Below the pieces are notes generated by a model. The model was given only the letters and a program-made list of their open reading frames with translations. It was not told the origin of the DNA and made no database searches. From NCBI GenBank assembly GCA_964549075.1, contig CAZJUB010000029.1, positions 1-30,924 of the forward strand: 30,924 nt of DNA, written 5' to 3'. The position numbers were made by a program, and so were the translations under genes. This DNA is from an uncultured archaeon (GTDB lineage Archaea; Asgardarchaeota; Heimdallarchaeia; Heimdallarchaeales; Heimdallarchaeaceae). Positions 2,885 through 19,549 of the stretch are shown piece after piece (positions within the stretch are counted from its first letter, which is position 1; the number at the start of each line of letters is the position of its first letter).

Positions 2885-4225
2885 TTATGTTAAAGGTTCC
2901 ATTATTTTTCTTTGTCTAAATTTCTTGAAATATTGATTAAATGATGATGGGAATTTGGTTGTATCTTTTAACAATAAATAGGGAAAAGCTGTTAAGAATC
3001 TTCCCAAAGCAGAAATTGCTAAAGCTATTATAACTGCTAATCTATATCCTTGAGAAGGTACTAGTGCATCTACAACATAACCGCAAGTTAAAGAACCAAA
3101 GAATTGTATTATCCCATTTCCCATATTAAATAAACCTATGTAGGTTCCTCCTGATTTTTCCGGGACAATATCAAATAGATAAGCTGTTAAACTAGGTAAT
3201 CCTAAAGTTGAAATCGAACTAACAAAGAAAACTGCAACTAGTAACTGCCATATTTCAGAAACAAAAATAAAAGTAAATGGAAAAAAAACAATGGTTAGTC
3301 TGTTCAAGAAGATCAATTTTGTTCTGCCGAATTTATCAGATAATTTTCCCCCTAAGCTTAAAAACAAGATGGCAGTAATGGCATAAATAGCATTAAAGAG
3401 TGATACATCTAAAACTGTACCGTTAAGAAACTCCTCATGTCTAAGAACAATAGGTATGAGTGGCCAAGTAAAAGCAAAGAAAAAACCATGAATCATAGAT
3501 ACGCCAAAAAATTTTCTAAAAGGTTTATTCTTCAAACATTCTTTGAATTTTTCAACTTTGATTGTTTCACCATTTATATCTTCCTTCCTTCTTTTCTTTG
3601 GTTCTTTTATTGTTAATAAAGGAAGAATACTCAAAACAGATATTCCTAAAGCTATTACTGTTGGTATCCATATATAATGCTGTACTTCTGTATCTTCTAA
3701 AGCCAAAGTAATTAAAAGCCCTGTTAGAATTAATGTAAATAAACGACCAATTGAATCGAAAATTAATATGTTTCCAGCTAATTTTGCCCTCACTTTTGGT
3801 GGAAAAAGAGAATTTTGAAGAGCTATCCAAGAAGGTGTTCCTAAGCTGATTAGAATATTAACAGCTGCTGTGATTAATATGATAAATATTGGGTTTGTTA
3901 TCCACCCAAGAAAAATATAAGGTAGGATCCAAAATAAACTCGATGTTATAACAAAAGGTAACCTCCTTCCAATAATATCTGATAACTTTCCAAAGAGAGG
4001 ATTAAGAAGTGTTGATAACAGATTAGTAATTGATTGAATCCATGCAAGAATAGAAGCTTTTGATCCCATATCTACAGCTATTAATCCAACAAAAGGAGTA
4101 ACTAAGCCTCCAGCCATTGCAGAAGCTGTAGTTTTAGAATAAAGGGCTGTTAATTCTTTTTTTGAAATTTTTTGATCTTTATGACTCTTAGGTACAATTG
4201 AATTAGTTTCTGCACTCTCAGACAT
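2885..4225 (-). CDS. MFS transporter
   Basis: About 12 hydrophobic segments; MFS motif A twice (FGKLSDIIGRR, GGKLSDKFGRT). Confidence 0.92.
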   Translation of the reverse strand: MSESAETNSIVPKSHKDQKISKKELTALYSKTTASAMAGGLVTPFVGLIAVDMGSKASILAWIQSITNLLSTLLNPLFGKLSDIIGRRLPFVITSSLFWILPYIFLGWITNPIFIILITAAVNILISLGTPSWIALQNSLFPPKVRAKLAGNILIFDSIGRLFTLILTGLLITLALEDTEVQHYIWIPTVIALGISVLSILPLLTIKEPKKRRKEDINGETIKVEKFKECLKNKPFRKFFGVSMIHGFFFAFTWPLIPIVLRHEEFLNGTVLDVSLFNAIYAITAILFLSLGGKLSDKFGRTKLIFLNRLTIVFFPFTFIFVSEIWQLLVAVFFVSSISTLGLPSLTAYLFDIVPEKSGGTYIGLFNMGNGIIQFFGSLTCGYVVDALVPSQGYRLAVIIALAISALGRFLTAFPYLLLKDTTKFPSSFNQYFKKFRQRKIMEPLT

Positions 4226-4353
4226 AAAGAATCTTCCTTTTCAAATTAAATTAGAACGAATCTATCTTGGTATAAAACATTTCGGTGATGCTAGTTAAGT
4301 TTAAAAGAGTGCTACTTATAATGAAAAACCAAATGTTTAGAGAAATTTTTGTG

Positions 4354-4361
4354 TTTATATA
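4354..4361 (+). promoter_or_regulatory. Archaeal TATA box for the ncRNA-TROVE unit
   Basis: TTTATATA lies at -29..-22 relative to G4383, the first base of structured element 1, which is canonical archaeal spacing. Confidence 0.55.
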
Positions 4362-4382
4362 TTCAAAACTTATTATGAGATA

Positions 4383-4460
4383 GGAGCTGCGAAGAAAGCA
4401 GTTACTTCGAAACACTCCCAAAACACACGTTTGATTATACTGCTTTCGCTTGTTCTCTCC
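4383..4460 (+). ncRNA. Putative TROVE-associated small RNA, copy 1 (vault RNA / Y RNA-like)
   Basis: GGAG(4383-86) pairs with CTCC(4457-60); perfect 9-bp helix GAAAGCAGT(4394-4402)/ACTGCTTTC(4439-47); TACTTCGA motif 4403-10; homologous to copy 2; directly upstream of a TROVE gene. Confidence 0.7.
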
Positions 4461-4523
4461 ATTATATTTCAATCTAACACTATTTCGCCACATTTAGAGG
4501 AGCCAGCTTTGATAATAAGATAC

Positions 4524-4598
4524 GGGAGCTACTTAGAAGGCGGATACTTCGACTGAATGCTCATTTCGTGAAAATGACCGCTTTCAAGTATACTCTCC
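4524..4598 (+). ncRNA. Putative TROVE-associated small RNA, copy 2 (vault RNA / Y RNA-like)
   Basis: GGGAG/CTCTCC terminal pairing; TACTT(4530-34)/AAGTA(4586-90), bulged A4535, GAAGGCGG(4536-43)/CCGCTTTC(4578-85); TACTTCGA 4545-52; internal hairpin TCATTT-CGTGA-AAATGA (4561-77). Confidence 0.7.
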
Positions 4599-4669
4599 TA
4601 ATAATAAACAAAACAGGTACAATTCATGACTTTTCTTGTCGAAGATCATGATACGGGGAGAAGGACTTT

Positions 4670-4675
4670 AGGAGG
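4670..4675 (+). promoter_or_regulatory. Shine-Dalgarno of the TROVE gene
   Basis: AGGAGG 10 nt before ATG 4686. Confidence 0.7.
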
Positions 4676-4685
4676 TTAAGTAAAA

Positions 4686-6287
4686 ATGAAATTAAATGTT
4701 AAAAATAAGCCAGATTATTTATCTAGAAGGGATATAACTCTCAATCACGAAGGAGAGATATCTTACCTTTGGTCTGACAAAATTGAGTTATTCAAACAAG
4801 TAGCAACATGCTTCTTTGGCGAACCAAAATTTTATACAAACAGCAAAACCTCTGCAGAAAATCTAATTCAAATCGCTATCAAAGTAGCAAAAGAAGATCC
4901 TGATTTTGTGTTGAGGTTAGCAATTAAAGCACGACATGAATATAATCTTAGAACTGTACCAATTGTTCTACTCAATATTGTAGTTAACACTAAAATTCAC
5001 CCAAATACTTACAAAGCTGTTGCAATGACTATTAGTAGAGCTGATGAGTTAACAGAAATTGTTGCAGCAGCTCAGTTATTCTCACGCAAAGATGGTAAGA
5101 ATAAGCTTATTCTTCCTCAAGCTATTAAGAAAGGAGTAGCATTAGCTTTCAACAAATTTGATTCTTATCAATTTGCAAAATACGATCGTAAAAACTATGA
5201 AATCACATTCTCCAATCTACTTGATTTGACTCACCCCAAACCTAAGAACAATGAACAGTCAACTATATTCAAATCCATAAGAGACAGATCTTTAGCTTCT
5301 CCAAATACTTGGGAAGTAATAATTTCAGTAAAAGGAAGCACTAGAGAGAACTGGGAGAAAGCACTTGAACAGATGCCTATCTTTGCTTTTCTAAGAAATC
5401 TGAGAAACCTAATGAAAAATGGTGTAAATTTTGAAGACAAATTAGTGGGTATTTTCCATAATGAGGAAATAATTAGAAAATCCAAATTACTACCATTTAG
5501 ATTCTATTCAGCTTTTCAAGAGATACTCAAATTTTCATATACTTCTAGTTACATCTCAAACATCGAAAAACACGGATATGGTGATAATAGTAAATTCAGA
5601 GACATACTCAATAAAACTAAGAATGCATTGAACAAAGCCTTGGAATTATCCATACCCAATATTTCAATTCCAGATGGTAGAAACTTGATATTGGTTGATT
5701 TATCAGGATCAATGGATTCTCCAATTTCAAGTAAAAGTACAATACGAAACCGAGATATTTCAGCACTATTTGGAGCTGTGCTCCATTCTAAACTTGGTGA
5801 TAGAAAAACATCTATTTGGGGATTTGGTGAAACAGCTAAGGAAATATATCTAGATGAAATGAACAAATTATCTTTGTTAGACAAAGCTAAAGCTATAGAA
5901 ACATTAAATGTAGGACATGCAACAAATGCACATCTACCAGTTCAAAACGTAACACAACAGAATAGGTATTTCGATAGAATCTTTATCTTTACAGATGAAC
6001 AGGTTTACGACAGTAGATATCCTTCTTACAATAGATCTAGAGGAGTTTTAAGAAATGCAATACTAAAATATCGAGAAGAACTTAATCCACAAGCTCAACT
6101 CTATATTTTCAATCTTGCTGGATATAGTACAGGTTCAATTATGCCTGAAGACGATGGTTTTACACATCTCATAGCTGGATGGTCGGATGCTATATTCAAA
6201 TTTATTGAAGTAAATGAGAGAAGTCACGAAGCTATACTCAAATCTATTTACGAAAATACTGATTATGAAAACTATACTATTTCTTAA
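4686..6287 (+). CDS. TROVE-domain RNA-binding protein with C-terminal vWA domain (Ro60/TEP1-p80 family)
   Basis: NHEG, LRTVP, RADE, FNKFDSYQFAKY, THPKP, TWE, MPIFAFLRNLRN, SKLLPFRFYSA; vWA MIDAS LVDLSGSM and FIFTDEQ; C-terminal IAGWSD. Confidence 0.93.
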   Translation: MKLNVKNKPDYLSRRDITLNHEGEISYLWSDKIELFKQVATCFFGEPKFYTNSKTSAENLIQIAIKVAKEDPDFVLRLAIKARHEYNLRTVPIVLLNIVVNTKIHPNTYKAVAMTISRADELTEIVAAAQLFSRKDGKNKLILPQAIKKGVALAFNKFDSYQFAKYDRKNYEITFSNLLDLTHPKPKNNEQSTIFKSIRDRSLASPNTWEVIISVKGSTRENWEKALEQMPIFAFLRNLRNLMKNGVNFEDKLVGIFHNEEIIRKSKLLPFRFYSAFQEILKFSYTSSYISNIEKHGYGDNSKFRDILNKTKNALNKALELSIPNISIPDGRNLILVDLSGSMDSPISSKSTIRNRDISALFGAVLHSKLGDRKTSIWGFGETAKEIYLDEMNKLSLLDKAKAIETLNVGHATNAHLPVQNVTQQNRYFDRIFIFTDEQVYDSRYPSYNRSRGVLRNAILKYREELNPQAQLYIFNLAGYSTGSIMPEDDGFTHLIAGWSDAIFKFIEVNERSHEAILKSIYENTDYENYTIS

Positions 6288-6297
6288 TCTTTTTTTC
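6288..6297 (+). terminator. Oligo-T archaeal terminator
   Basis: TCTTTTTTTC immediately after the TROVE stop codon. Confidence 0.5.
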
Positions 6298-6493
6298 GCC
6301 TTAATTGTAAGATATTTAACCAAGCTATTTTATGGATTATTAACTGCCAAAAGAGAGTGATATTATTACTACTGTAGAAGAGCGTACTTCTATTATTGAT
6401 GATCTAATTAAAACTTACAAGTATAGTACTGCCCTTGAGGAAATTAATGATTTAGAAGGATTACCTGCACTTACAGAAAAGCAGTTTGCAGAA

Positions 6494-8305
6494 TTGATGA
6501 CTAAGAAAGCATCTGTTCTGAGCAATTTAGGATTCTTTGAACAAGCAAAATCACTAGCACACCATACTATCAATCTTTTCGGAGAAACTACTCTTTCATT
6601 AGATGAAAAGTACCATCTGTTTATCATAGTAATAGAAGCTTTATGGCAACTAGGTGAATTTGAAGAAAGCTTGTTAATGATTGAAAGAATCGAAAATAAA
6701 ATCAAAAATGATGAAAAAAATGTTCCTCTTGCACTACTTAACAAAGTTAATGCTTATCTCTCTTTGAATAAAAGCTCAATTTATAGTTTTACTGATTTAC
6801 TTAAATCAGAAGAATATATTGAACGTACTTTAGAGTTTTCAGAAGAAATTGATGATGAAATTTTAAATGCTCAGAGTTTATATCGCAAAGGAAAAATACT
6901 GACTTATCAAGGAAAATTAATCCAGGCAGTATCAATATTGGAAAAAAGTCTTGCTATTGGGAGAAAACTTAACAATTATTTGATTATGGCTGATGCTTTG
7001 GTTGCAATAGGAGAGATACATCGTTTGAGAGGAGATTTTGGTAAAGCTCTCCAATTTTACAATACTGCACTCATATTACATCAAGAAATAGGGAATACAT
7101 ATGGTATGGCTATAATTTACAATAATGTTGGAATTGTATATTACAGTAAAGGAGATTTCGATAACTCCTTTGAATATTTTACTAAAAGTTTACGTAGAGC
7201 ACTAGAGATAAATTTTAGATTTACCGTTGTGGAATCTTTATTCTATCTGATAAATATTCTAGTAAGCAAAGATCAGCTATTTGAAGCTAAAGAACATCTC
7301 CAAATCGCAAAAGATACTGCTTTAGATCAGAAAGATACGATGATCTACTATTATTCCCTTCTCTCAGAGGTCGTACTTCTTAGAAACGAAAATAGATTTT
7401 CTAGTTTAGGTAGAGCATATGATATCCTTCAAGAGATCATCAGTAAGAATCTAGTTTATCAAGAAATAACCATACATGCAATGCTCAATCTATGTGAAAT
7501 ATTACTCAATGAATTGAAATATTCAGGAAAGGAAGAGATACTTGAAGATTTGGATGATCTCACAGATAAACTACTAGAAATAGCAGAACAGCAATTTTCC
7601 CATTCCTTATTAGCAGAAGTATATTGGTTAAAAGGAAGGCTTGCTTTAGTAAATGCAGATTTAGATAAAGCTCGCGGATTTCTCTCAACTGCTCAATCCA
7701 TTGCAGAAGTCCAGAATTTAGAGAATTTGGCTAGAAAAATTTCAAATGATCACGATAACTTATTGTCTCAGCTGAATATGTGGAAGAATCTTATCGATGA
7801 AGATGTAAGTCTTGCTGATAGAATTCAAGAATCAAAAATTGATAAATTAGTAGCAAGTATGATAAATCGTGCAACTTTCGATATACAAGAAATAGAGAAC
7901 GATACCCCAGTTATGTTAATTCTTCTAAATGAAGGAGGTGTACCATTATTTTCCTTACAGTTTGGAACAGGAAAAACAGTTAATCAAATTTTACTCTCTG
8001 GATTCTTATCAGCAATCAATAATATTGTTCAAGAAGTATTCGAAACCAAAGGATCTATAAGAAGAATAGAACATCAAAATTATCTTTTAATATTTCAGAA
8101 TATTGAAAATATTATTGTATGTTATGCTTTCAAAGGTTCAAGTTATTCTGCAAGGAAGAAATTGAATTATTTCATAAAACAGATTGAAACATCATCTTTC
8201 AAGGAAGAGTTTATGTTTTCTTCATCAACAGGAAAAGTTCTTGATAATGAGAAAAATGAAATTTTAGAAAAATGGGCAACAGAAATTTTTGAAATGAAGG
8301 CTTAG
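6494..8305 (+). CDS. TPR-repeat protein with C-terminal longin-like domain (Asgard-type); true start possibly upstream (frame open from 6344)
   Basis: TPR units (ALVAIGEIHRLRGDFGKALQFYNTAL, IYNNVGIVYYSKGDFDNSFEYFTKSL); C-terminal ILLNEGGVPLFS...LLSGFLSAI longin-like pattern. Confidence 0.82.
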   Translation: MMTKKASVLSNLGFFEQAKSLAHHTINLFGETTLSLDEKYHLFIIVIEALWQLGEFEESLLMIERIENKIKNDEKNVPLALLNKVNAYLSLNKSSIYSFTDLLKSEEYIERTLEFSEEIDDEILNAQSLYRKGKILTYQGKLIQAVSILEKSLAIGRKLNNYLIMADALVAIGEIHRLRGDFGKALQFYNTALILHQEIGNTYGMAIIYNNVGIVYYSKGDFDNSFEYFTKSLRRALEINFRFTVVESLFYLINILVSKDQLFEAKEHLQIAKDTALDQKDTMIYYYSLLSEVVLLRNENRFSSLGRAYDILQEIISKNLVYQEITIHAMLNLCEILLNELKYSGKEEILEDLDDLTDKLLEIAEQQFSHSLLAEVYWLKGRLALVNADLDKARGFLSTAQSIAEVQNLENLARKISNDHDNLLSQLNMWKNLIDEDVSLADRIQESKIDKLVASMINRATFDIQEIENDTPVMLILLNEGGVPLFSLQFGTGKTVNQILLSGFLSAINNIVQEVFETKGSIRRIEHQNYLLIFQNIENIIVCYAFKGSSYSARKKLNYFIKQIETSSFKEEFMFSSSTGKVLDNEKNEILEKWATEIFEMKA

Positions 8306-12370: not shown

Positions 12371-12433
12371 GATTCTTATTTTTGAGACTTATATAAAACT
12401 TATCAGAAGCAAAGGTAAAGATTATACTCTTTC

Positions 12434-14233
12434 TTAATCAGCTATTGTATCAGGTTGCTTAATAGATAAATCTGCTTCTTCAGTAGTTGGTATTTTTTGA
12501 TCCAGTACATCAAAATCTGTATCTGCTATATAATCACTTTCCAAATTAAAAGGTAAATAATCAACATCTCCAAAATTATTCAAAAGAGCATAATTTCTAA
12601 ATTCAGGTATAAAAATCGAGTATGGATCAAAGTATTGAGGTGATACTAATCTTCTCATATCATACGAAGCTTCTTCATTGTTTAAAGCCATACAGAGGTT
12701 GGTGAGATAAATCTCTATTTCTGAGTTAAATTTCTGTGTAAATGCTAAATAGTATTGTTCATGAACCTCCTTCACTCTATTAGAGAATTCCTCTATCGAT
12801 ATCTCCTTTTGAATAACCAAAATTAGATTTCCTAACAAAGTAAAAGCAAATGCATCTCTAGGAGCATATTTGGAGTAATCAGATAACCTAATCAATTTAT
12901 GAGCAAGTCTTTCAAGTTCATCGTATCTTTCTTCACGAGTAGCTAGAGTAGTTTCATAGATCGCTAATAATCCATTGAGTTTAGGATATCGTTTCATTCC
13001 ATCTTCTGAGAAGAAATATTGATACTCTTTCAAAATTTTCTCCATATGAGTATAATTCTGCATCTTTAAGGCCATAATCCCTCCAAAATAGATGAATTCT
13101 TCCAACATACCACCTATTCCATCAGCCATCTGGCTATTAATGAAATCTGGACTGTCCATAAGATGTGTGTATTTATCCATATACTCATACAATTTTGGCA
13201 TAACTTCATTTTCGATTGGATGAAAATATTTCATATCATCTTTAATGATAATATTATAAGCTGCTTTTAAACCAATTATGAAGGCTTTTGTAACCTCTAA
13301 TTCATAGATTGTTTCACTTACATCATTATCTGTAAGAGGATTGTCATTTAAATTGAAGTATCCTTGATTTACATGTTCTTTTAAATCTGCAACATAGTTT
13401 TCTCCTTTCTTCAACAGATTTTCCATAGAATTAAGGAACCCTTCTGGATTAGTAATATCTATCACTTCATTATTAGAGCTGATTTTTAAAGAATCATTGT
13501 AGAGATATCTCTGCAAATCCATCAAAAAGGTAATAATATAATCAATCGCTGCAAAAGTAGCATAATACATCGAATAATTACGTTCTTTAGGTATTTTTTT
13601 TGCTAGCTCTATATTTTTTTTCACATTCCAGAATTTATCCATATAATTAATGTACTGGATACTTGCCTTCAGTCCTTCAGTCATCCAATGTTCTAAATCA
13701 TGTTTGTATATCTGTGTTAAAGATTCACATAAGCTAAAGAAGAATAAGTATGCTGAGCTTAAATAATTGAGTATTAATTTCCTCCTTCTGTGAAATTGGT
13801 GATGATCCCAATCAACATATAGATCTTTGACATCCAAAGTAGATATCCCAATAAGAACATTAGCTAATGCATGAGCAGAACCTGCGACTTGCAATTCACC
13901 AGCTTGTCCATATTGTAATGCGTACATAGATGCATATCTCAATCTGAAAAGTTCAAGTTCATACCATTGAATAGGTAATTTATCTTGAGGTAAGTTAGTG
14001 AGAATCAGAGTTATTTTTTCCAGAACAGATTCAAAGAAGAAGGAAGCTTTTTCAGAATCAGTTAATAAATCATCAGGAATCTCACTTAAGATGTGTTTCA
14101 GCTCATCAACTCTCTGAGATACAAGTATTCTAACTCTAGTTTCTGAGTAATTGCTCCAATTAATATTATTTACAATATCGTTTATATTGTCAAATAACTC
14201 CAAAATTTCTTTAAATATCTTATCTTCAGACAT
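12434..14233 (-). CDS. Hypothetical soluble, predicted alpha-helical protein (~600 aa)
   Basis: Long ORF; ATG 14233 preceded by SD-like AGGGGGT; acidic C-terminal tail; no motif recognised. Confidence 0.75.
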   Translation of the reverse strand: MSEDKIFKEILELFDNINDIVNNINWSNYSETRVRILVSQRVDELKHILSEIPDDLLTDSEKASFFFESVLEKITLILTNLPQDKLPIQWYELELFRLRYASMYALQYGQAGELQVAGSAHALANVLIGISTLDVKDLYVDWDHHQFHRRRKLILNYLSSAYLFFFSLCESLTQIYKHDLEHWMTEGLKASIQYINYMDKFWNVKKNIELAKKIPKERNYSMYYATFAAIDYIITFLMDLQRYLYNDSLKISSNNEVIDITNPEGFLNSMENLLKKGENYVADLKEHVNQGYFNLNDNPLTDNDVSETIYELEVTKAFIIGLKAAYNIIIKDDMKYFHPIENEVMPKLYEYMDKYTHLMDSPDFINSQMADGIGGMLEEFIYFGGIMALKMQNYTHMEKILKEYQYFFSEDGMKRYPKLNGLLAIYETTLATREERYDELERLAHKLIRLSDYSKYAPRDAFAFTLLGNLILVIQKEISIEEFSNRVKEVHEQYYLAFTQKFNSEIEIYLTNLCMALNNEEASYDMRRLVSPQYFDPYSIFIPEFRNYALLNNFGDVDYLPFNLESDYIADTDFDVLDQKIPTTEEADLSIKQPDTIAD

Positions 14234-17672: not shown

Positions 17673-18095
17673 TTATTTAACTAAATGTTTGAATCTTATC
17701 TGAAAATCTAATATGATCTGTTCTACTTTTTTCCTAAATTCATCTGTTTGAAAATAAATTGCTTTATTCAGATAACTTTCAAGTTCTTTCCAATTGACCA
17801 ATTCATAAATTAATCTCAAAAATCTCTTAGCACTTGTTGATTTAACTTTAGTGTGCATCCCAACTACAAAGATGAAATCATCTCTTGTTCTAAAATAATA
17901 GTTAACTCCTTCCATCTGTATGGAATATAACTCTGAACCTAATTCTCTAGAAAAAGCTATCATTGCAGCACTAAATCCACTAAATAATAGCTCGTCCATA
18001 ATCTCACTTACGTATGAACGATGAAAAACAGCTAGTCCACTTAAGTCTACCACTGTAAATCGAAGAAGAGGTGGTTTTTCAGGGATTTCAGACAT
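17673..18095 (-). CDS. Small longin/roadblock-like domain protein (eukaryotic-signature type)
   Basis: FTVVDLSGLAVFHRSY...DELLFSGFSAAMIAFSRELGSELYSIQME...FIFVVG pattern; ATG 18095 preferred. Confidence 0.68.
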   Translation of the reverse strand: MSEIPEKPPLLRFTVVDLSGLAVFHRSYVSEIMDELLFSGFSAAMIAFSRELGSELYSIQMEGVNYYFRTRDDFIFVVGMHTKVKSTSAKRFLRLIYELVNWKELESYLNKAIYFQTDEFRKKVEQIILDFQIRFKHLVK

Positions 18096-18276
18096 TTTGG
18101 ACTGTTCTCTTATTTTCGAAGATTTAGCGTTCAATATTGCACCTATATATTCACTTCAAGAATTATTATACAACTTAGCTAATTAAAAAGTGTATGGTGA
18201 AAATTTGCTGAAAATATGATTTTATCTTAGAAAGTTGCTAGAAAACACTTTTATTTTTGCGTTTTAAAAAAATCAC

Positions 18277-19494: not shown

Positions 19495-19549
19495 TTTTTG
19501 GTCTATTCGTTGGAGATGTGAATGGTGTATTTAAACAAGTTTCTAAAGG

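Follow-up and report, generated by a model that had tools for sequence, protein, structure and literature searches.

Descriptions of Y RNAs, the small RNA partners of the ring protein Ro60, have so far been limited to animals, bacteria and phages. Work on Xenopus laevis, Deinococcus radiodurans, Salmonella Typhimurium and the Thermus phage phiLo assigns them three roles: docking on Ro60, gating and tethering (PMC4201824, PMC12135203). According to the same papers, it is mostly the 5' strand of the Y RNA stem that contacts the outside of the Ro60 ring, the docked RNA controls the access of misfolded RNA to the ring, and the bacterial effector tethered by the apical part is polynucleotide phosphorylase (PNPase). 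Chen et al. 2014 (PMC4201824) report Y RNAs of 80–130 nt, encoded within a few kb of the Ro60/TROVE gene and on the same strand. In Mycobacterium smegmatis YrlA and YrlB lie upstream of the Ro60 gene rsr and are processed from one precursor (PMC4201824). In phiLo two Yrl RNAs with a CGAA motif are located upstream of Ro60 and bind the protein in vitro (PMC12135203). The locus analysed here lies in a stretch of 30,924 nt (the window) from an uncultured archaeon of the Heimdallarchaeaceae (assembly GCA_964549075.1, contig CAZJUB010000029.1). In it, an open reading frame (ORF) with TROVE and vWA domains is preceded by two tandem RNA-like elements. The locus is quite probably a Ro60–Y RNA module of a Heimdall-type Asgard archaeon, with the two elements as its short Y RNA genes.

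Ro60 is reported from all three domains of life (PMC12135203), and TROVE/Ro60 genes have been noted in Asgard viruses (bioRxiv 10.1101/2021.07.29.454249) and in Borgs (PMC11208441). The survey of Chen et al. covers bacteria and phages only, and nowhere in its text or supplements is the word "archaea" used (PMC4201824). Full-text literature searches, which did not cover the two main reviews, returned no described archaeal Y RNA. This agrees with the initial annotation of the window, made from the letters alone, which knew of no characterised archaeal TROVE-bound RNA. The family itself (bacterial Y RNAs) is known already; what is new is the first concrete archaeal Ro60–Y RNA candidate pair, in the lineage closest to eukaryotes.

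The two elements and the adjacent Ro60 gene

The three main features of the locus are as follows.

4383–4460, + strand: Y RNA candidate 1 (copy 1), 78 nt; fold of −21.0 kcal/mol, z −3.39; best window match of a profile built from non-window members
4525–4598, + strand: Y RNA candidate 2 (copy 2), 74 nt; fold of −20.4 kcal/mol, z −3.03; same architecture as copy 1
4686–6287 (stop codon 6285–6287), + strand: Ro60 ortholog of 533 amino acids; TROVE HEAT-repeat ring plus vWA domain with an intact MIDAS (metal ion-dependent adhesion site) motif

Both elements are contained in the 460-nt intergenic gap between a divergent MFS transporter gene (2885–4225, − strand) and the ORF, and both are on the strand of the TROVE gene. 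The end of copy 1 is 226 nt from the start codon (ATG 4686) and the end of copy 2 is 88 nt from it. The initial annotation had described the elements as homologous, 142 nt apart and sharing one motif architecture, with 5' and 3' blocks that pair in both copies, and this description was upheld. A repeat search recovered the 5' blocks as direct repeat D1 (4371–4410 vs 4513–4552, 73% identity, spacing 142) and the 3' blocks as direct repeat D2 (4439–4460 vs 4577–4598, 73% identity, spacing 138), as well as a perfect 9-nt inverted repeat inside copy 1 (4394–4402 / 4439–4447). Both copies fit the pattern GGAGCT-N5-GAARGCRG-W-TACTTCGA...A-CYGCTTTC-N7-CTCTCC and fold into end-paired rods. On the + strand, as stable a fold was reached by 0 of 200 shuffled sequences for copy 1 and by 2 of 200 for copy 2. 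The minus strands fold with z scores of −0.11 (copy 1) and −2.66 (copy 2).

Copy 1 is composed of a 4-bp terminal stem (GGAG/CUCC), a middle region with CGAA at 4390–4393, an 8-bp helix (4394–4401:4440–4447), the conserved UUACUUCGA and then a small apical hairpin. In copy 2 the 8-bp helix is 4536–4543:4578–4585 and the middle region reads CUUAG, versus CG(U/A)AG in the family described below. Every pair of the 8-bp and terminal helices is kept in both copies via compensatory changes. The two helix differences pointed out earlier were both confirmed from the sequence and the folds: A4400–U4441 of copy 1 becomes G4542–C4579 in copy 2, a compensatory change, and A4397–U4444 becomes G4539–U4582, where a G-U pair replaces A-U and the helix is preserved. 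The loops had been called unrelated. The apical parts are not entirely so: in the minimum free energy (MFE) folds of both copies they close a small hairpin that begins with UC, a bulged G and then A. The middle helices (GCGA:UUGU in copy 1 vs UACUU:AAGUA in copy 2) are one position out of register.

The core motif is confined to these two sites in the 30.9-kb window. At up to three mismatches 0.38 matches are expected, and two were reached in 5 of 100 shuffles. For GGAGCT-N5-GAARGCRG at up to two mismatches there are three matches vs 0.22 expected, a number reached in 0 of 100 shuffles. ARAGORN found 0 tRNA genes in the window and no Rfam family matched it at gathering score. The apical part of the window RNAs is about 30 nt long, and a tRNA-like module (T-arm, acceptor-like stem, D-arm) is not present in it by ARAGORN or Rfam. 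A long inverted repeat around both copies (4370–4380 / 4594–4604) was also considered; the predicted start comes only after its 5' arm, and it was judged a chance feature of A/T-rich DNA.

The ORF had been called a TROVE/vWA gene, and Pfam agrees (TROVE 1.2e-21, vWA_Ro60 1.5e-10). The MIDAS residues D338, S340, S342, T413 and D437 are invariant among 42 relatives. The best sequence match in the PDB is Ro60 of the Thermus phage phiLo (E 1.8e-33); X. laevis Ro60 is found at E 2e-4, and D. radiodurans Rsr gave no sequence match at 1e-3 in this search. An AlphaFold model of the 533-residue protein has a predicted local distance difference test score (pLDDT) of 87.6 and a predicted template modelling score (pTM) of 0.88. 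With this model Foldseek found phiLo Ro60 (E 5e-20), X. laevis Ro60 (template modelling score, TM, 0.72) and D. radiodurans Rsr (TM 0.56), and the structural alignment with phiLo, X. laevis and human Ro60 and with Rsr runs over the whole length (TM 0.56–0.73). By its domains, its MIDAS residues and this full-length structural match, the ORF 4686–6287 encodes a complete Ro60-type protein.

The closest relatives of the protein are P0002 (81% identity) and P0003 and P0004 (both 45%). In a quick, unrooted FastTree of 97 TROVE proteins, several rows of which have a skewed composition, the window protein groups with metagenome proteins inside a mixed set that includes Patescibacteria, Bacillota and one protein named Aenigmatarchaeota. 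In the same tree a clade apart (support 99) unites the proteins of haloarchaea and Halovirus HGTV-1, and the Bacteroidota make up another (support 100). The topology suggests separate acquisitions.

Stem homology with bacterial Y RNAs

The window RNAs were compared with 80 TROVE loci, taken around the best 80 of 576 confirmed genome relatives of the protein. All of these loci are bacterial, and the best relative among them is a Patescibacteria locus (L001, 39% identity). A covariance model built from the two window copies alone (R2, 12 base pairs), under which copy 1 scores 97 bits, gave 38 matches at E ≤ 10 in the 80 loci. Of these, 37 of 38 are close to the gene and on the TROVE strand. In the 28 matches with E ≤ 0.1, 97.9% of cells are paired, vs 66.5% in shuffles and 45–60% when the partners were slid by 1–3 columns. 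Changes on both sides occur in 12 of 12 modelled pairs, and the covariation score is 0.866 vs 0.226 in shuffles. RNAalifold, an independent method, predicted 14 pairs (two beyond the 12 of R2), all with compensatory changes.

A second model (R3) was rebuilt from these 28 matches and used to search 582 kb at E ≤ 0.01. It returned 275 matches, all on the TROVE (+) strand: 273 in the bacterial loci, plus copy 1 (58.6 bits, E 2.3e-12) and copy 2 (46.7 bits, E 4e-9). By hand count, 71 of the 80 loci contain a match. Among the nine others, three have almost no flank and six were re-searched with filters off, after which four of the six had a match at E < 0.01. No further R3 copy is found elsewhere in the 31-kb window. 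Positions upstream and downstream of the TROVE gene are equally frequent, at distances that reach about 3.5 kb, and a single locus (L018) can hold an array of as many as eight elements. The spacing between their arms ranges between about 20 nt and over 100 nt.

This strand pattern bears on the idea that the repeats are not RNA genes and function as DNA, for example in the form of a small mobile repeat or a palindromic operator. The perfect inverted repeat of copy 1 and the well-folding minus strand of copy 2 (z −2.66) would fit such a role. However, only the + strand tolerates G-U pairs, the arm spacing is far from fixed across the family, 273 of 273 locus matches share the strand of the gene and the window has no additional copy. 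A DNA-level function is therefore highly improbable.

The covariation and placement strongly back the proposal of the initial annotation that the two elements are cognate Y-RNA-like partners of the adjacent TROVE/Ro60 protein, with binding as a prediction. The stem stands beside TROVE genes (71 of 80 bacterial loci, on the gene's strand, all modelled pairs compensatory). The expectation that motif and helix would recur beside TROVE orthologs was borne out for these covarying bacterial loci but not for six haloarchaeal plasmid loci, which R3 does not score. A comparable RNA–protein partnership probably exists in archaea too.

The 5' half of the family consensus has a terminal stem of 4–6 bp, G-N-C-G-(U/A)-A, the 8-bp helix, (G)UUACUUCG and a variable apical part; the 3' half has the return strand of the helix and then UCG-N-UU-N-UU. 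UACUUC is invariant in 146–150 of 150 aligned members, and both window copies keep UACUUCG. In the middle region the bacterial relatives mostly read CGUAG (best 150 matches). By length the best 150 matches contain 95 members of more than 110 nt, 74 of which have T-arm and/or D-arm motifs in the order T before D, and 40 members of 90 nt or less, 34 of which lack both arm motifs. The order T-arm then D-arm is the architecture of YrlA, so the long R3 members are taken to be published YrlA. They also match the YrlA of 120–145 nt that Table S1 of Chen et al. (PMC4201824) places downstream of rsr in Bacteroides, Chitinophaga and Chryseobacterium. Short Y RNAs with the YrlA stem and no tRNA module are widespread beside bacterial rsr (40 of the 150 best matches), and the window RNAs belong to this short class. 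As judged from the shared model, they are not a new RNA class: they are short members of the known bacterial Y RNA stem family.

Comparison with individual Y RNAs supports this placement. The window RNAs and YrlA share the terminal stem, CG(A/U)AG in the 5' strand, the 8-bp helix and GUUAC, and one covariance model matches both. YrlA seed rows read GNCGAA(G), about 7 nt and then GGTTA(C/T)C (seed alignments of PMC4201824). Copy 1, with GCGAAG, 7 nt and GTTACTTCG, has the same 5' module. However, the apical tRNA mimic of YrlA is about 60 nt long (T-arm, acceptor-like stem, D-arm), and its place in the window RNAs is taken by a hairpin of about 30 nt. They were not filed as YrlA because the tRNA-like module is missing and the apical part is this short. 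The best reading of the alignments is that they are homologous to YrlA-type Y RNAs in the stem and short like YrlB or Yrn2.

YrlB (S. Typhimurium, M. smegmatis) and Yrn2 (D. radiodurans) were compared by description, not by sequence. As they are described, these RNAs too are encoded beside a Ro60 ortholog and on its strand, a second Y RNA often being present, and form a long end-closed hairpin with a CGAA-type motif in the 5' strand and no full tRNA-like domain. In contrast to them, the window RNAs come from an Asgard archaeon with a predicted archaeal-type promoter, both are short and no YrlA partner is present in the window. M. smegmatis YrlB is described with a possible T-arm, whereas the window RNAs show none by ARAGORN or Rfam.

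The closest solved protein is phiLo Ro60 (PDB 9KOP, 9L5Y; PMC12135203), whose gene is likewise reported to have two tandem RNAs upstream, with CGAA in a bulge. Protein identity to it is only about 27–29%, it belongs to a phage of a bacterium, and RNA binding was shown by experiment for phiLo. Metazoan Y RNAs (Rfam Y_RNA) share the end-paired stem as the Ro60 site, contacted mainly on the 5' strand, and the presence of several paralogs per genome, as far as these are described. Their GGUCCGA has been likened to GNCGAA (PMC4201824). The window RNAs differ from them in having no Rfam match even at E ≤ 10, and the similarity to the X. laevis protein is weak (E 2e-4). Metazoan Y RNAs are also Pol III genes unlinked to the Ro60 mRNA.

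A number of observations weigh against reading the elements as Y RNA genes. In the region 4226–4700, Rfam at E ≤ 10 gave nothing meaningful and no metazoan Y_RNA match. When 4383–4700 is folded as a single RNA, the MFE structure keeps the hairpin of copy 2 and loses that of copy 1. The sizes of 78 and 74 nt, with predicted ends, are under the 80–130 nt of characterised Y RNAs. Against the published motif GNCGAAN0-1G, copy 1 has UGCGAAG (CGAA kept, first G changed to U) and copy 2 has UACUUAG, without CGAA. Copy 2 carries U at the best-conserved loop base, which is G in 149 of 150 aligned family members. R3 gave no significant match upstream of the gene in phiLo (best E 0.6, downstream of the gene), so the phiLo Yrl RNAs and the window RNAs are not detectably homologous in sequence; on the six haloarchaeal plasmid loci neither R3 nor a sequence profile gave a significant match. 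A reciprocal profile of 148 non-window members found the two copies as its two best window matches (copy 1 E 1.1e-4, copy 2 E 0.052; third match E 3.6), a test that is not fully independent because the bacterial members were first gathered with a window-seeded model. Finally, the 80 loci of the comparative set are all bacterial.

Since the near-invariant G is replaced by U, copy 2 may bind weakly or be decaying. This leads to the alternative that the module was horizontally acquired and is in decay, with one or both RNAs, above all copy 2, as non-functional relics. Copy 2 lacks the near-invariant G of CG(U/A)AG and scores 46.7 bits vs 58.6, and in the quick tree the protein falls among bacterial, CPR (Candidate Phyla Radiation) and DPANN-named relatives, apart from other archaeal TROVE proteins. 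Yet compensatory changes have kept the helix pairs of both copies, which also share the invariant UACUUCG. The ORF is intact with a conserved MIDAS, the GC (guanine plus cytosine) content is even (0.30–0.35) and an 81%-identical protein exists elsewhere. Decay is accordingly considered quite unlikely, and a pair of short Y RNA genes stays the favoured reading.

The bacterial loci contain further features. In the Patescibacteria locus L001 two short tandem elements lie just upstream of the TROVE gene (2666–2731 and 2824–2879; E 0.0053 and 0.34 with filters off). Arrays of five to eight tandem Y RNA genes, long and short mixed, were found on the rsr strand in many loci (among them L018 4912–7169, L055 4588–5831, L076 4597–5665 and L040 2194–2934), and some arrays are interleaved with true tRNA genes. 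Across 39 bacterial loci Rfam named only tRNA and Flavo-1, and a model able to score these bacterial Y RNAs appears to be missing from the database. Flavo-1 (RF01705) lies directly 3' of the TROVE stop codon in seven Weeksellaceae loci, on the opposite strand according to Rfam:

L015 4600–4690; L018 4535–4624; L023 4568–4643; L050 4552–4629; L072 4569–4657; L073 4527–4613; L075 4565–4653: Flavo-1 sites

None of these sites beside TROVE has an R3 match, and neither strand of them folds better than shuffles.

Proposed transcription unit and mechanism

The signals around the two elements and the ORF are listed below.

4354–4361 (−29 to −22 from 4383), + strand: TTTATATA, likely archaeal TATA box, from sequence and motif statistics
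4650–4660, + strand: GATACGGGGAG, third copy of a junction motif, in the mRNA leader (direct repeat D5, three-way alignment)
4670–4675, + strand: AGGAGG, Shine-Dalgarno-like, 10 nt before ATG 4686
6290–6296, + strand: T7 tract, likely archaeal oligo-T terminator of the whole unit, 3 nt after the stop codon
2809–2816 (−), 4354–4361 (+), 12390–12397 (−), 14210–14217 (+), 19528–19535 (−): TTTAWATA sites of the window

The TATA box, the Shine-Dalgarno sequence and the T7 tract are all where the initial annotation had placed them. An archaeal TATA box is usually centred at about −26, and oligo-T acts in archaeal transcription termination. TTTAWATA is approximately three-fold depleted in the window (5 sites vs 16.0 ± 4.2 expected), and four of the five sites precede either copy 1 or an ORF start (2786, 12370, 19494) by 20–41 nt, each on the strand of the feature that follows it. 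The depletion together with this promoter-like placement fits functional archaeal TATA boxes. The spacing suggests that transcripts of the window are mostly leaderless or have short leaders. A scan for sigma-70 promoters gave 9 sites vs 10.6 expected and is uninformative, the consensus being bacterial and not that of the archaeal host.

There is no second canonical TATA box before copy 2 or the ORF, no T-tract after either copy, and 0 bacterial-type hairpin terminators in 4100–6500. A single processed transcript with both RNAs and Ro60 is suggested by the one TATA box, the lack of a terminator between the units and the T7 tract after the ORF. The junction motif (GA)GATA(C)–GGG(G)AG occurs at 4377–4386, 4519–4529 and 4650–4660, as GAGATA–GGAG before copy 1 and GATAC–GGGAG before copy 2. 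In the leader (4650–4660) the motif may serve as a signal for processing or initiation, or be what is left of a third unit.

The same layout would be expected if the hairpins acted in cis within the leader of the Ro60 mRNA, for example as binding sites for autoregulation by Ro60, and were never released as stable small RNAs. The only canonical TATA box (4354–4361), the uninterrupted run from the elements into the ORF and the recurrence of the junction motif GATACGGG just before the Shine-Dalgarno sequence are all in line with this. But a leader role cannot explain the homologous bacterial elements, because these are found equally often downstream of TROVE, at distances reaching about 3.5 kb, and with as many as eight elements in an array. 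The published relatives are also released RNAs, M. smegmatis YrlA and YrlB being described as processed from a precursor (PMC4201824). A purely leader-bound function is thus unlikely.

If the elements are Y RNA genes, as favoured here, one transcript would start at about 4383 (4383–4385), directed by the TATA box, and extend across the two RNAs and the Ro60 ORF as far as the T7 tract. The A/U-rich linkers would be cut, or trimmed back to protected stems, as with M. smegmatis YrlA/YrlB. Each RNA would then dock on the outer Ro60 surface through the 5' strand of its stem (the CGAAG region) and the neighbouring helix, and docking would gate the entry of misfolded RNAs into the ring. A nuclease may be tethered to Ro60 by way of the apical part. 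Archaea are not known to have PNPase and use a PNPase-like exosome, which makes the exosome the obvious effector candidate. With this locus comes the question of the nuclease that an archaeal Y RNA would recruit. In a more far-reaching version, the elements would be the first archaeal RNA partners of Ro60 and would work in a manner not open to bacteria: two minimal Y RNAs free of a tRNA module that form the 5' part of the mRNA, are made from a single archaeal TATA promoter and tether Ro60 to the exosome or another archaeal nuclease, with the leader repeat (4650–4675) letting Ro60 control its own translation. This full combination is rather unlikely.

Other archaeal and viral TROVE loci and the host context

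In a phage collection the best match of the window protein is Halovirus HGTV-1 (30% identity), and in a plasmid collection the 11 best places are all on haloarchaeal plasmids (29–30%). In each of six haloarchaeal plasmid loci (L083–L088) the TROVE gene lies behind an array of 4–20 tRNA genes on the same strand. Between tRNA-Glu and tRNA-Arg, just upstream of the TROVE gene, there are three tandem unannotated units:

L085 2435–2767, upstream of the TROVE coding sequence 2956–4485; likewise in L083, L084, L086, L087 and L088: haloarchaeal units

Their fold begins with a long terminal stem; then come an internal loop containing (G)UCGA, a helix of 9 bp, UU(U/G)CUUCG (UUNCUUCG) and a T-arm-like hairpin, and the 9-bp helix differs between units by compensatory changes. 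Their likeness to Y RNAs is a matter of inspection and folding only, because neither R3 nor the profile scores them. R3 gave no significant match on HGTV-1. An nhmmer match there (E 0.049; L081 28–159, containing GCGUUACUUCGC) lies inside a tRNA-Asp intron, 2.8 kb upstream of TROVE, has no Y-like rod and is probably due to chance.

The remaining genes of the window concern its origin. The Dus (tRNA dihydrouridine synthase) gene (732–1478, − strand) has relatives at 70–79% identity, and those named by organism are of the Heimdallarchaeota, Heimdallarchaeaceae or Asgard group in 6 of 6 cases; among the 120 matches listed, the organism-named ones are archaeal in 12 of 12. For the pyrroline-5-carboxylate (P5C) dehydrogenase the nearest organism-named relative is from Heimdallarchaeaceae (81%), followed at 65–68% by a mix of Thorarchaeota and bacteria. 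The GC content is uniform along the window (0.30–0.35), and the protein annotation of the window contained no integrase or phage gene near the Ro60 locus. Given the archaeal Dus and P5C relatives, the even GC content and the lack of an integrase or phage gene nearby, the window most likely comes from the chromosome of a Heimdall-type Asgard archaeon.

The RNA is of a bacterial type and the protein clusters with bacterial/CPR relatives, which points to protein and RNA moving together between domains, probably as one module. The Asgard Ro60 of the window is, going by its relatives, probably not the direct ancestor of eukaryotic Ro60.

Two observations concern neighbouring genes. Salmonella DusA is reported to modify YrlA (PMC4201824), and the Dus gene of the window is separated from the Ro60 locus by 3 kb. 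A D-arm is absent from the window RNAs, however, and the proximity is probably a coincidence. A 153-residue ORF (17673–18134, − strand) matches a longin domain weakly and below threshold (Fuz_longin_1, E 0.0019); eukaryote-like proteins of this kind are known from Asgard archaea.

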